From IMG/VR virus record IMGVR_UViG_3300033149_003931, positions 28,568-92,567 of that record: DNA of 64,000 bases; one strand, written 5' to 3'. Shown one piece after another: positions 697-9,833 of the stretch. The DNA comes from a virus. Made by a program: the position numbers and the translations under genes. How positions within the stretch are numbered: position 1 is the first letter of the stretch; every line of letters begins with the position of its first letter. Under the pieces are notes generated by a model. The model was not told the origin of the DNA. It did no database searches and was given only the letters and a program-made list of their open reading frames with translations.

Positions 697-3552
697 ATGG
701 CTGGAATCAATAGTAATGTCGTCTTTATGTCCCATTTTGATGGCCTTGATGGTTCTCAAACTATTATAGACGAAATAGGAAATGTCATTACCGCTAACGG
801 TAATGCTCAAATAGATACTTCTGATTCTGTATTCGGTGGAGCCTCAGTATTATTTGATAATAATTCTGCTTCTAGGCTTACTATTCCGAATTCTCCTTCA
901 TTTAATCTTGGTTCACAAGATTTCAGGTTTGATTTCCGAATTCAATATGTTGCAGTAGGTGGTACGCAGGCTATCTGGACACAATGGGGTGGCGGTGGAT
1001 CAAACGGCTCATTCTATATTGTAACGCTTGGTGGAAATTTACGATTTTTTTATTCGCCAAATGGCTCTTCTGAAGTAGCAATATCTAGCACATATACTTT
1101 TGCTGATAGTAATTTTCATCATGTAGAGGTATCAAGAACCGGTAATACTCTTTATTTCTTTGTTGATGGGGTTGCTTATGGTACAGGAAATCTGACCGGG
1201 GTAACTATTAATAATTCTACAAGACCCCTGAATATTTCAACTTATGCAGATGGGGCCGGACAGCCTCTTAATGCTAGGGTTGACGAGGCTAGAATGTCGG
1301 TAGGAGAGGGCGGGCATACTTCACCATTTACACCGCCGACTGAGCCTTATGATTTTGACAGACTTTTTCCCTCATTAGAGTGGTCGGCAACAGGAGATAT
1401 TCAGTTAACTCCGGCGTTACAGTGGGAAGCTTCTCTCTTAGGTGAACTAACTCCGCAAGTTTCTTGGAATACTGAAATGGAACATAAGTTTGTTCCTAAT
1501 GTGGTTAATTATCCATTTTATTTTGACCAACCCACTGTTAAGAGTAGTTCAGTCCCGATGACCATATCCGGGTGTTTTGTGGGTTATTCTGTTTATTTAA
1601 AAAATACGGGGTCTAGTGGAACTACTGAAATTGAGATTTATGTGGACGGCCTTTTAAAGGATACTATAAGTATTGTTGCTTCGGGAGTCGTGCATAATGA
1701 AGTAAGATATTTTGATTTAGATCAAATGTTAAATCCTCAGGGTATTTTTAAAGTAAAAGTAATTTCTGCGGCAGTAGCCTCGGATGATTTAAAAGTTAAT
1801 ATGTATTTGATGACATTTCCCTTTGAAATGGATGTCTTATTTTATTCTAATATTTCCGACTCGGTAAATTTTACAGGTTTAAATAAAGAGTATTTATTCC
1901 AGTCAACAGACAATTGGTTGATCGATTTTAATCAACCCATATTAACGGTAGCTAGTGTGACCATCGAGGATGAAAATGGAGATGTTACTGACGTGCCCTA
2001 TTCTGTTTTAGATGGAACCTTCTTTAATAGCAGGATTCAGTTAGCGGCCTATACTCAGGCTTTGCCTAAGAGTATTAAAATTAAAGTCCAAGATTATAAT
2101 GAGAGGTATCAAATATTTGAATTAACTCCGACGATAGCTCCGACTCTTGGGGAATATCCACCTTATGTGACAAGTATGACAAAAGAATTTGAGTTATTTA
2201 TTGCTGCAACCGCTTTTCGATATAGTTTTGATGTAGGAAGTACATGGTCTAGTTGGGAGGCTGTGTCTAGTAGTAATACTGCTACCATAGATTTTAGTAG
2301 TCTCTCAAATGGAGAGAAGACTGTTAAGATACAATACCAAATCGGATCTGATATGTTAGAGGGGGATTTTTCTCTTTATTATGTAATCGGAGATATTGAT
2401 GTATCAATTTTATGGATTGGTGATTATGCGTTAGTCACGTATGCAGACACCGTGCCTTTAGATAGGATAGAGGTTTATTATGATGGTGCCTTGTCAGATA
2501 CTTTATCTATCCCGGTTATTAATGGTTTTGATACGTTTTCTTTAGACGTGGGTAATACTGAACTGGATATTGGTGTGGGTAGTGTATATTGGAATTCTGT
2601 TAAGTATGATTATGATGGATCTTCATGGTCTCTTGCGAGTTTGGATTTTGCGAGTTATGCTTATGCTATGCAATATCAAGCTGTTTTTGGTTTCGATACT
2701 GTAGAAAATAAATTTGATGTAAAAATTATTATAGATGAAAACCCGTCAAACGGTAATTTTGAAGAAAGATTTCCTTCGTTTGTAAGAATTTGGGCTTTAG
2801 ATTTTCTAATTAATACGCAGGGCCTTGATTTTAGTCCCTATACTGTTCAGATAAGTAGTACACCGAAAAAGGTTTTTGAAGATGGAAGGGTTCAGGTTAC
2901 TTTGGATGCTAGTAAAGAAATTATAATTAAATTGATTGATGTTTCTGGAAGAACATTAAGTTTTACACAAGAATTTTATAAAACTAAATATAATATTTGG
3001 CGGACAATTGTTATAACTAAGGAGAGTATTATTGGCAGCAGCTCTAATGGGTTACAATTGCCGCGATTAGCCATTGATGATTCGGATAGTTTTTGGACAT
3101 CAAGTTTGAGTGAAGTTTTACCCGCATGGTTACGTTATGAGTTTGGTTTAGAGACTAAACAAATAATTACTGAAGTTTCGATTAAACCAAATTTTTTTGG
3201 TGATGTGAATGGTGTACCAAAAGATTTTAAAATTCAAGGAACTGATGATGGGGAGATTTGGGATGATTTATTAACCGTAGCTGGGGAGTCTTGGGTAGAC
3301 GAAAACCCAAAGATTTATTCATTTTCAAACTCTGTAGCTTACGCTTTTTATAGACTTTATGTTACCGATACTTTTGGTGGTAGTTATGTTCAAATCAAGG
3401 AGTGGGAATTACGAGAAACTATCGGTGGGCCTGATTTAGCATCATTTTTTGAGGTAGAAATATTTCCGGGTGAAATTCATCAAAGTAGCGATATAAAAAT
3501 TGCTCTTGAAACAGAGGATTGGGGAGATGAACCCGATGGCCCAACAGAATAA
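697..3552 (+). CDS. Tail/receptor-binding protein with N-terminal LamG/ConA-like domain and C-terminal discoidin (F5/8C)-like domain
   Basis: SVFGGASVLFD..FHHVEVSRTG..FFVDG..VDEARMS (LamG); WLRYEFG..PKDFKIQGTDDGEIW..YAFYRL..IKEWEL (discoidin). Confidence 0.75.
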   Translation: MAGINSNVVFMSHFDGLDGSQTIIDEIGNVITANGNAQIDTSDSVFGGASVLFDNNSASRLTIPNSPSFNLGSQDFRFDFRIQYVAVGGTQAIWTQWGGGGSNGSFYIVTLGGNLRFFYSPNGSSEVAISSTYTFADSNFHHVEVSRTGNTLYFFVDGVAYGTGNLTGVTINNSTRPLNISTYADGAGQPLNARVDEARMSVGEGGHTSPFTPPTEPYDFDRLFPSLEWSATGDIQLTPALQWEASLLGELTPQVSWNTEMEHKFVPNVVNYPFYFDQPTVKSSSVPMTISGCFVGYSVYLKNTGSSGTTEIEIYVDGLLKDTISIVASGVVHNEVRYFDLDQMLNPQGIFKVKVISAAVASDDLKVNMYLMTFPFEMDVLFYSNISDSVNFTGLNKEYLFQSTDNWLIDFNQPILTVASVTIEDENGDVTDVPYSVLDGTFFNSRIQLAAYTQALPKSIKIKVQDYNERYQIFELTPTIAPTLGEYPPYVTSMTKEFELFIAATAFRYSFDVGSTWSSWEAVSSSNTATIDFSSLSNGEKTVKIQYQIGSDMLEGDFSLYYVIGDIDVSILWIGDYALVTYADTVPLDRIEVYYDGALSDTLSIPVINGFDTFSLDVGNTELDIGVGSVYWNSVKYDYDGSSWSLASLDFASYAYAMQYQAVFGFDTVENKFDVKIIIDENPSNGNFEERFPSFVRIWALDFLINTQGLDFSPYTVQISSTPKKVFEDGRVQVTLDASKEIIIKLIDVSGRTLSFTQEFYKTKYNIWRTIVITKESIIGSSSNGLQLPRLAIDDSDSFWTSSLSEVLPAWLRYEFGLETKQIITEVSIKPNFFGDVNGVPKDFKIQGTDDGEIWDDLLTVAGESWVDENPKIYSFSNSVAYAFYRLYVTDTFGGSYVQIKEWELRETIGGPDLASFFEVEIFPGEIHQSSDIKIALETEDWGDEPDGPTE

Positions 3553-7784: not shown

Positions 7785-7940
7785 AGAACGGAGTTAGCGA
7801 GATATTCTCTACAAGGTAGAGTTGTTGGCATTTCTTGGGATTGTTGGCCCAAAAATAACAGTCCTTGAATTTACAAAGGAGGGTTTATGTTTTTAAAAGG
7901 AGGTACGTCATGATGTAGAAACCGAAAGGAGGTATACGTC

Positions 7941-8111
7941 ATGGCTAAAGCCCAAAAATGTAAAAGCGGGAATAAAGCCAAAGGTCGTCAGTCTGATCGC
8001 CATAAGATCGAGTATGAACGTCAAAGAATTCGTACCGAAGCCAACAAGCGTAAAAGACGCCGAAGACATTTGGAAAAACACCTGAATGATTTGCAAGCTC
8101 AAAATGTATAA
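7941..8111 (+). CDS. Unannotated 56-aa Arg/Lys-rich protein (MAKAQKCKSG...ANKRKRRRRHLEKHLNDLQAQNV)
   Basis: Hand translation; perfect SD AAAGGAGGT 7 nt upstream; too short for the ORF track. Confidence 0.8.
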   Translation: MAKAQKCKSGNKAKGRQSDRHKIEYERQRIRTEANKRKRRRRHLEKHLNDLQAQNV

Positions 8112-8114
8112 AAT

Positions 8115-8254
8115 GGGGTGGGGATTCCCGCCCGTCCGGAGGGTCTGAAATACGGCTTGACTGTGTGGTAGGACTAACTCCGTTTAGGGGCACCTTTCGG
8201 GGTGTCCCTTATGACTGAACCCTGAATGTTCACTAAAAGGTAAACATTAGGTTC
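8115..8254 (+). other. Chain of four hairpins including a UUCG-capped 10-bp stem (terminator and/or structured 3' RNA)
   Basis: GGGTGGG-GATT-CCCGCCC; CGGAG.GGTCT/GGACT.CTCCG; AGGGGCACCT-TTCG-GGGTGTCCCT; GAACC.AATGTT/AACATT.GGTTC. Confidence 0.55.
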
Positions 8255-8558
8255 TGAGTATACATTATGATACCCGCCCGGGGCCATCCGGCCCACCTTC
8301 AATATTATAATTATTTATTATTAATACTATACAGCCTGCCTGATCGGGTATAAAATATCAAAATTGATGCGTTAAGGCCCGATTTCCCGATTAATACAGC
8401 ATAAAAGCGATATTAACCAACCTCGACCCGGCCAAAGGCCGCCCCTCGGTTGAGAGTAAACCATTAAAATCTATCAATATTATGGAAATTAATACATAAT
8501 CAGTCTTAGCCGCTTTTTAAAATAAGTGGGCAGACTTGATACTTACCTGTGCGGTGGA

Positions 8559-8882
8559 ACGTCCTCCGGAGGCAGCCTCGGGAATCGCTCCGCTCTCCCT
8601 CGGCGCCTTCCGGTTCTGATCCGTCTATTCTGGACAGGAATCTGGACAATATGTCCAGTTACCGGATTCGTCCACTATTTAGTGGACATTACCAGTTATT
8701 TATGGGGTACCAGCAAGCCTGACCGCCTGCTGGCGGTAGACTTCCGGCATATTCGGAATGGGGCCCAGATCCGGAAGAGAGGCCTACAGAAGGCATCCTG
8801 AAGCGATTGGAGGCTATAATCGTGTCATAATCTGAAGCGTTTAGAGATCCAAATCGGGGCGACGGCGTAGCCGGAGACACGT
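8559..8882 (+). ncRNA. Candidate large multibranched ncRNA, family unassigned
   Basis: At least nine nested helices found by eye; G.U wobbles favour the + strand; GC-rich island with no convincing ORF. Confidence 0.55.
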
Positions 8883-8938
8883 ATTTGATAGGAATATAGC
8901 CTGTAATAGGGAATTATAAGGAATATGGGTGGAAGACC

Positions 8939-9036
8939 TGCTGGAGGGTAGGATTTTTACCTACTAGCTTGTCGTTGATTGCTTAAAGACTTGAAGTACA
9001 GATTACTCCGTGCGTGTTCATCACGCCACCTCTGGC
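8939..9036 (-). ncRNA. tRNA-like element (D-arm, T-arm, interrupted acceptor stem, no anticodon arm)
   Basis: GCCAGAGG-TG-GCGTG(ATGAA)CACGC-ACGGA(GTAA)TCTGT...GTAGG(TAAAAAT)CCTAC-CCTCCAGCA. Confidence 0.6.
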
Positions 9037-9166
9037 AAGGCTTTCTTTGGTCAGACGGTGCTTTCCCAACATCACATTAAGCAGTTATCATATGTTCTGT
9101 TTAACTTCCTTATCCCACCGCCGAAATCCGGAAGAATTAGATAGTTGGGAGTCTAATATAAATAAT

Positions 9167-9514
9167 CTACATATTTCTTAACTGATCGCCGGCTTTTGAT
9201 CCACGAATACCTGAATTATTTAACACGATTAAACTCGGTGATATTTCAGAATACTTTTTAAGAATATCTCCATGACAGGGTTTGGGGGCGCACCAACAGG
9301 CGATTACCTTGTTTCTAAGTTCTGGGAGGGCCTTAAGGAGATCCGGGCGGGATAAAAGGTATTTCTCGTATTTTTGAATGACTTCGGCACGATCACCGTC
9401 TTTTCCAATAACGAAGGGATTAGCCCATTTACTATTGATAGGAAATCGAGGATTCCAACGTCCAATATAAATATCAAATTTTTCTCTATAACAATGAACT
9501 ATTTTAATTGACAT
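9167..9514 (-). CDS. DUF4326-like protein
   Basis: YIGR..SKWANPF..ACWCAPKPCHGD. Confidence 0.8.
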   Translation of the reverse strand: MSIKIVHCYREKFDIYIGRWNPRFPINSKWANPFVIGKDGDRAEVIQKYEKYLLSRPDLLKALPELRNKVIACWCAPKPCHGDILKKYSEISPSLIVLNNSGIRGSKAGDQLRNM

Positions 9515-9614
9515 ATTTTCTCCAAATATTGATTAGTTTGCGGCTTTTCCGCAAGAAAGATATATTTTATGGTTTTGTCAATCTTAGACTGAGTTTTATC
9601 TAAAAGTTTTATAG

Positions 9615-9833
9615 TCATTTTGCTTTTGCCTTAATAATATTTGTTAATGCTCGAACAGCGTCAGCACACGAGACACCACATTGTCCCAAACCTTTGGCTA
9701 CTGTAATAATACTGGATTCAATAACCTCATCGGAAATGTCAGATAAATCATAACCAAAGTCTTTAAGAGATTTTCGGATATTCTTTAATATTTTCTTTCG
9801 TCTGAATTCCTGTAATTTTTTTATTATAAACAT
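9615..9833 (-). CDS. Hypothetical protein
   Basis: Coupled ORF with SD. Confidence 0.5.
   Translation of the reverse strand: MFIIKKLQEFRRKKILKNIRKSLKDFGYDLSDISDEVIESSIITVAKGLGQCGVSCADAVRALTNIIKAKAK

Follow-up and report, generated by a model that had tools for sequence, protein, structure and literature searches.

The window analysed here is 64,000 nt long and covers bases 28568-92567 of an IMG/VR phage genome of 92.5 kb that is complete, carries direct terminal repeats and has a GC content of 36%. It contains a conserved non-coding core of ~150 nt that folds into a chain of local hairpins and has homologs in two syntenic relatives. Our preferred reading, to which we give a probability of roughly 45% based on sequence comparison and folding predictions, is that this core is a module of conserved RNA structure situated where the early and late transcripts converge, probably at the 3′ terminus of a minus-strand transcript. 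The three phages that carry the module all have it downstream of their last minus-strand gene, before the 3′ end of the late operon is reached. A first-pass annotation, made from the sequence alone, had flagged a longer stretch of 324 nt as one large RNA; this stretch combines two parts of different nature, a left half that is conserved and a right half specific to the lineage, and the pairing of the right half with the left is incidental. The features discussed below are listed in Table 1.

Table 1. Features in and around the convergent gap (positions are those of the window unless a relative is named; a dot marks features without an assigned strand, and the minus strand given for H1 and H1a is a probable one).
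Feature	Position	Strand	Basis or remark
Leader ORF	7887-7940; L004 about 18858-18825 (-); L012 about 2937-2978		Position conserved in three divergent phages
Arg-rich 56-aa protein gene	7941-8111	+	Terminal gene of the plus-strand block
Peptide gene homologs	L012 3001-3177; L013 77-244; L020 about 210-344; L014 1596-1763		Within or directly beside tRNA arrays
Hairpin block directly 3′ of the Arg-rich ORF, containing UCUGAAAUACGGCU	8103-8176	+	72% over 75 nt to L004
IR-L, palindrome AATGTTCAC-N6-GTAAACATT	8225-8248	.	Inverted relative to H3; block 8214-8269 matches L225
H1a, second H1-type hairpin (stem, GA/GA loop, GC-rich stem-loop)	8412-8458	-	Predicted fold; resembles H1 of L004
Conserved non-coding core, chain of local hairpins (H1, H2 base, H3)	8543-8694	- (probable)	L225 blocks; z-scores
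Candidate of the first-pass annotation	8559-8882	.	Composite of conserved left half and lineage-specific right half
H1 (H1b)	8565-8614	-	Same architecture in independent MFE folds of three phages
H2, basal helix UCCGGU (8609-8614) / ACCGGA (8661-8666)	8609-8666	.	Counterpart in L225
H3 (IR-R), palindromic hairpin GTCCAC-N6-GTGGAC	8669-8688	.	Conserved in L225
Lineage-specific right half of the candidate, holding the 3′ strands of the proposed outer helices	8695-8882	.	No homolog, no excess structure
DUF4326 gene	9167-9514	-	Terminal gene of the minus-strand block; Pfam 2e-26; L004 alignment

The core is set in a fast-evolving, ORF-free and GC-rich gap of 1056 nt (8112-9166), where the late (plus-strand) and early (minus-strand) gene blocks converge. 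To the left of the gap, the plus-strand block ends in tail genes and the gene of a Zn-ribbon protein, followed by that of the 56-aa Arg-rich protein; to the right, a long minus-strand block terminates in the DUF4326 gene. The first-pass description of a GC-rich island in an AT-rich genome was borne out, with the largest GC island of the genome located inside the gap by a composition scan of the whole genome. ARAGORN found zero tRNA or tmRNA genes in the window and zero in the whole genome. We did note that the DUF4326 ORF extends ~30 codons past the end of its ortholog in one relative, L004 (window 9167-9260), in an unconserved extension; on this alignment, the functional gene may stop at about 9250, which would make the non-coding gap longer than 1056 nt. 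The hairpin block directly after the Arg-rich ORF belongs to this context and falls outside the candidate. Its counterparts in the relatives L004 and L225 end in a homologous hairpin and T-run terminator, which the window has lost.

Relatives were sought in viral, metagenome and genome collections via the 261-aa and 836-aa tail proteins, the helicase, the DUF4326 protein and the Arg-rich peptide. Five related phage records were found through these neighbouring proteins, of which only L004 and L225 carry the element. Both are close relatives (helicase 76-77% identical) and keep the same order of Zn-ribbon gene, leader micro-ORF, Arg-rich peptide gene, gap and minus-strand genes, with a gap of 288 nt in L004 and about 625-800 nt in L225. 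The window and L225 are collinearly similar in three blocks only, namely 8214-8269 (71% to L225 14961-14906, E 2e-6), 8543-8618 (74% over 81 nt, E 9e-8) and 8655-8694 (72%, E 0.01), while similarity to L004 is found only at 8103-8176 and, weakly, at 8557-8618, such that hairpin H1 is all of the core that L004 shares. Identity to L225 is 71% in H1, compared to 71% in the peptide gene and 72% in the helicase gene. Within this small clade, the conserved core is passed on by vertical descent.

Further copies were not found beyond this clade in the collections searched. A covariance model (CM) of H1 (R1), which scored 80.8 bits in the window, 74.9 in L225 and 69.2 in L004, detected no other copy in 23 loci nor in three more distant genomes (G001, G005 and G006). 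The latter were rejected as carriers, lacking the element by both BLAST and the CM, and the two BLAST matches in G006 are fortuitous, falling within tail genes. Querying the phage and plasmid collections with the gap by BLAST yielded no match, searching viral contigs for the exact H3 hairpin pattern yielded 0 matches, and degenerate H1 patterns returned only chance matches in GC-rich DNA among viral and genome contigs. A looser stem-GA-stem hairpin descriptor was discarded as too unspecific (104 matches vs. ~75 in shuffles).

The core has no coding potential. Its alignment with L225 contains indels of 1, 2 and 4 nt, which exclude a shared reading frame, and no ORF in the region has coding character, ruling out a coding function. 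It is over-structured in all three phages, with z-scores of -5.0, -2.7 and -5.5 in the minus sense and -3.3, -2.2 and -3.7 in the plus sense. Independent minimum free energy (MFE) folds of the three phages return the same hairpin H1 (L225 14783-14835, L004 18476-18522), with an outer stem, GCC/GGC pairs, a symmetric 2x2 internal loop and then a distal stem capped by an apical loop. In the window, the distal stem has 4 bp (GGGA/UCCC) and leads to another GA-rich loop, a stem of 2 bp and a GGA triloop (UCC on the plus strand). The 2x2 loops, which read UC/UC on the plus strand and tandem GA/GA on the minus strand, are invariant. Sequence changes affect both the distal stem (window, GGGA/UCCC; L225, AGAU/AUCU; L004, GG plus CCGGGG/CCCCGG) and the apical 2-bp stem (window, GC/GC; L225, AC/GU). 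As predicted from these folds, H1 keeps one architecture in the three phages despite altered stem sequences. A second hairpin of this type, H1a, lies to the left of the core in the window, where positions 8418-8449 are weakly similar to L004 18516-18485 (69%, E 0.25).

The remainder of the core consists of H2 and H3. The basal helix of H2 encloses a perfect hairpin specific to the window (8642-8658); L225 has UUCCGG/CCGGAA in the aligned positions around a different interior, and given this conservation of sequence, there is no covariation in H2. The closing pair of H3 is C.A on the plus strand and U.G on the minus strand. For the window-L225 pair, RNAalifold counted 2 (plus) or 7 (minus) pairs changed on both sides, and a model-fitted alignment, of three sequences only, had 80% of its cells paired, which is not significant, as 54 of 500 shuffles reached this score. 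One-base register shifts that hide stem changes are part of the reason, and compensatory covariation in the core is, on these alignments, no more than suggestive.

As for the sense of the core hairpins, we lean towards the minus strand, somewhat beyond even odds. The first-pass annotation had held that wobble pairs favour the plus strand, a claim that did not survive the comparison, the minus sense being more stable in all three phages. In each of them, the minus-strand version of H1 is favoured by 5-10 kcal/mol, and the core has its lower z-score in the minus sense in 3/3 phages. Only on the minus strand do the invariant 2x2 loops of H1 read GA/GA; tandem G.A pairs are stabilising and commonly conserved in RNA, and UC/UC pairs are not. 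H3 also gains its U.G closing pair on the minus strand in both the window and L225. On the contrary side, the lower stem of H1 in the window contains a single G.U pair on the plus strand, and L004 has two compound hairpin-plus-T-run sites in the plus direction, recognised by eye and not called by a simple terminator scan, that bracket H1 and argue for plus-strand transcription across it.

Under the preferred reading of a structured transcript end, the hairpins would function as RNA, with the minus strand the likelier one, and form the structured 3′-terminal zone of the early-operon transcript. Such a zone could terminate or stall transcription before the late genes are read in antisense, and could shield the 3′ end of the transcript from exonucleases; a processed small RNA derived from the 3′-UTR would be a possible product. 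The arrangement resembles the clusters of terminators and 3′-stabilising hairpins in convergent intergenic regions of phages and bacteria, in that strong, GC-rich local hairpins lie between converging operons, the stems change with pairing kept, and the surrounding spacer turns over rapidly. It differs in that ~150 nt are conserved here instead of a single stem, and in that invariant symmetric 2x2 loops, of the tandem GA type when read in the minus sense, are part of H1, a feature that simple terminators can do without. Also unlike such clusters, no U-tract trails H1, in the window or on the minus strand. After H1, the plus strand reads GGUUCUGAU in the window and GGUUUUGGUUU in L225; the hairpin of an intrinsic terminator is present, a U-tract is absent on the minus strand, and a pattern scan called no terminator at H1 in any of the three phages. 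Judged by its sequence, H1 is not a canonical intrinsic terminator.

The reading from which this work departs, one ornate ~320-nt plus-strand RNA spanning 8559-8882 and closed by five nested long-range helices, we consider extremely improbable on comparative and shuffle tests. The listed helices are real, as sequence reading and a complement check found every one of them in place; most are perfect Watson-Crick helices, and the MFE and centroid folds of the plus strand contain several of them. However, the whole 324 nt is predicted to be only modestly more stable than shuffles (-123 kcal/mol and z -2.3 on the plus strand; -130.5 kcal/mol and z -3.9 on the minus strand), and all of the excess folding stability belongs to the left half, with z-scores of -3.3 (plus) and -5.0 (minus) for 8543-8700 vs. 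-0.3 and -1.7 for 8701-8885. Joining 8553-8699 to 8700-8885 gains -7.9 kcal/mol, against -8.7 +/- 3.6 kcal/mol for dinucleotide-shuffled 3′ halves, 87 of 150 of which gain as much as the real one (joining z +0.22 on the plus strand, -0.83 on the minus strand). Given that this gain is no better than that of shuffles, the nested outer helices are a chance product of two such GC-rich stretches. Nor are they conserved in the closest homolog: in L225, their 5′ strands have hardly changed, yet the sequence downstream offers no complementary 3′ strands in nested order, and the pairing there is local. Bases belonging to the conserved H1 or H2 are used by the AGCCTC, AATCGCT and CTTCCGG helices, three of the five outer ones, and the conserved H1 cannot form together with three of the five.

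The right half of the candidate, moreover, has no homolog in L225, L004, the more distant relatives L003 and L035, the rest of the window, or the phage and plasmid collections, and the longer stretch 8695-9170 has none in any relative or elsewhere in the window; the 51% identity between the right half and L225 in a forced global alignment is background level. What stands of the proposed structured non-coding RNA is that the region is non-coding, GC-rich and partly conserved as hairpins, and what falls is a single multibranched RNA of ~320 nt. A “facing tRNA-like element”, suggested in the first-pass annotation as possibly forming one system with the candidate, found no support either, since 8886-9166 shows no excess structure (z -0.8 on the plus strand, -0.1 on the minus strand), no homolog and no tRNA signal.

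Comparison with known RNA families was negative throughout. A cmscan against Rfam, the check proposed in the first-pass annotation, was run with permissive filters (E <= 10) over window positions 7800-9700, and matched no family to the candidate; it returned only two chance snoRNA matches outside the element and no match to the GOLLD, ROOL, RNase P, tmRNA, group I/II intron, OLE, HEARO or raiA models. The same scan of the homologous gaps in L225 and L004 was negative. With regard to tRNA-like structure, there was no RF00005 match in the scan, and ARAGORN at a 75% threshold made two doubtful calls, both outside 8559-8882. The earlier statement that the candidate belongs to no recognised family and bears no RNase P, tmRNA or group I/II intron signature agrees with these Rfam and ARAGORN scans.

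Among known phage RNAs, the tRNA cluster of phage T4 encodes two small stable RNAs, species 1 and 2, which are structured and are not tRNAs. The element likewise is structured, is not a tRNA and occupies a location where phage tRNA genes lie; unlike the T4 case, this genome has no tRNA genes at all, and no sequence relation is expected. Like GOLLD and ROOL (PMC5737381; PMC12286853), the element is phage-associated, non-coding and GC-rich relative to its genome, and sits in a slot that in related gene neighbourhoods holds tRNA genes. It differs in that neither covariance model matched at E <= 10, and in that ~150 nt of unbranched local hairpins are conserved here, as opposed to a multidomain fold of 400-800 nt; no conserved long-range helices or pseudoknots were found in the element. 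A new ornate phage RNA of the GOLLD or ROOL kind, if true, would have been notable, and the candidate is reduced to a small, clade-restricted hairpin module of modest interest in a convergent intergenic region. H1, which combines invariant symmetric loops with changing stems and matched no described family, could be modelled and searched for in larger collections.

The Arg-rich gene next to the gap has a wider distribution. Homologs of 56-61 aa form five clusters in a large protein collection and occur at 16 metagenome loci, and the protein has a weak, sub-threshold match to DUF7022. Four unrelated metagenomic phage contigs (L012, L013, L014 and L020) have the gene within a tRNA array or immediately next to one, with 21 tRNA genes around it in L012, and in the window's clade, which lacks tRNAs, structured non-coding DNA follows the peptide gene instead. 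The CM search found H1 absent from these tRNA-array peptide loci, which suggests that the peptide is a general companion of phage tRNA or structured-RNA regions and not of H1 specifically; a general coupling of candidate and Arg-rich peptide, which the first-pass annotation had raised as possibly one system, is not supported. As a recurrent companion of phage tRNA arrays, the gene is a more testable lead than the RNA. Just upstream of it, we noted a short leader ORF of the form M-(F/I/L)-L-(K/T)...GG with its own Shine-Dalgarno site, ending in overlapping codons of the ATGATGTAG/TAA type.

Arg-rich motif (ARM) peptides are known to pair with RNA hairpins, as in lambda N-boxB and HIV Rev-RRE. 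Here too, a conserved gene for a small Arg/Lys-rich protein lies ~450 nt from purine-loop hairpins, and one may imagine that the GA-type loops of H1 and the palindromic hairpins are the RNA half of a new phage peptide-RNA system with the 56-aa protein. The protein would then bind the H1 loops and control read-through or processing at the junction of late and early transcripts, in a system occupying the genomic slot of the tRNA arrays of other phages. In contrast to the established ARM pairs, the tie between peptide and hairpin consists here of proximity alone in three phages, and the peptide homologs elsewhere lack H1; we consider such a system very improbable.

The tRNA-array slot also bears on whether the core, with or without its flanks, is a stand-alone small RNA gene, the product of which would be trans-acting or protein-binding and possibly contacted by the Arg-rich peptide via the purine-rich loops of H1. 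We regard this as unlikely, albeit consistent with several observations: the core is as conserved as coding DNA and keeps its hairpin architecture, the peptide gene, H1 and synteny are retained together in 3/3 phages, and the L004 unit is bracketed by the two plus-direction hairpin-plus-T-run sites noted by eye above. The position of the peptide gene in L012, L013, L014 and L020 further indicates a slot that hosts stable RNA genes, and in composition, the GC island of this AT-rich genome is similar to the tRNA arrays in L012 and L013. However, no promoter-like site was found for such a gene, the space separating H1 from the late terminator in L004 is too short for a promoter, and 13 other loci with peptide homologs carry no H1, meaning that the pairing is not general. 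The GC-rich hairpins could also be remnants of terminators or of a former tRNA array in decaying, functionless sequence. This would agree with a gap that is mostly unalignable and differs widely in length among close relatives (288, ~625-800 and 1056 nt), and with a genome that lost or never had tRNAs when relatives of its peptide gene sit with arrays. We nevertheless find decay improbable, given that the core is conserved like coding DNA, that its stems change without loss of pairing, and that no tRNA-like signal appears even at relaxed thresholds. A decayed tRNA array was rejected specifically, there being no residual similarity to the tRNAs of L012, L013 and L020. A replication origin was likewise deemed unlikely, the junction being a convergence point with an AT-rich stretch specific to the window.

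Action at the DNA level is suggested by the palindromes. H3 is an inverted paralog of the IR-L palindrome, and where the two differ (T/A vs. C/G), the compensating change lies in the same palindrome and not in the other one, which favours local hairpins or symmetric sites over a long helix joining IR-L to H3. As a counterpoint to an RNA reading, both palindromes would equally suit a DNA-binding protein, and the two inverted 9-6-9 palindromes could be sites for a dimeric regulator or recombinase, in which case the segment they enclose would be a pair of operators, an inversion switch or a formerly mobile element. They are conserved in the window and L225 in sequence and not via covariation, they flank H1/H2 in inverted orientation, and L225 has mirrored extra half-sites that extend them to ~44-nt terminal inverted repeats of ~66% identity. 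Invertons are invertible promoter segments between inverted repeats, and similarly, two inverted, internally palindromic sites of ~24 bp flank a non-coding segment of 230-460 bp here; in contrast to invertons, the phage has no recombinase gene (neither serine nor tyrosine, PF00239 and PF00589 being absent from the complete genome), no promoter was found inside the segment, and its orientation is the same in the window and L225. For a MITE or other small mobile element, there are no target-site duplications or flanking direct repeats, the genome holds only one copy, and the position is syntenic in the relatives. The palindrome motif is not enriched and occurs nowhere else in the genome, L004 retains H1 but neither palindrome, and conserved mismatched loops amid changing stems in H1 form an RNA-like and not an operator-like pattern. 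Taken against these points, DNA-level action seems quite improbable.

Several smaller features were noted around the element. An invariant 13-mer, CTGAGTATACATT, lies 3′ of IR-L at 8254-8266 (L225 copy at ~14923-14911 on the minus strand); it is identical in the window and L225 within surroundings that are only ~70% identical, and occurs once in the window genome. L225 also has a second AGTATACATT copy. The two more distant relatives, L003 and L035 (helicase 57%), lack the Arg-rich gene and share a non-coding stretch of ~166 nt (L003 20858-21020 and L035 4915-5073, both on the minus strand; 66%, E 3e-8) that differs from that of the window. This stretch is part of a ~270-nt region that begins directly behind the Zn-ribbon gene and terminates in a strong hairpin and T-run, and by its sequence is a candidate for a separate structured 3′ region. 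Lastly, the lineage-specific right half of the flagged stretch contains a direct repeat, CTGAAGCGATTGGAG / CTGAAGCGTTTAGAG, at 8798-8812 and 8832-8846, 34 nt apart, and L225 has a single CTGAAGCG near the 3′ end of its gap.
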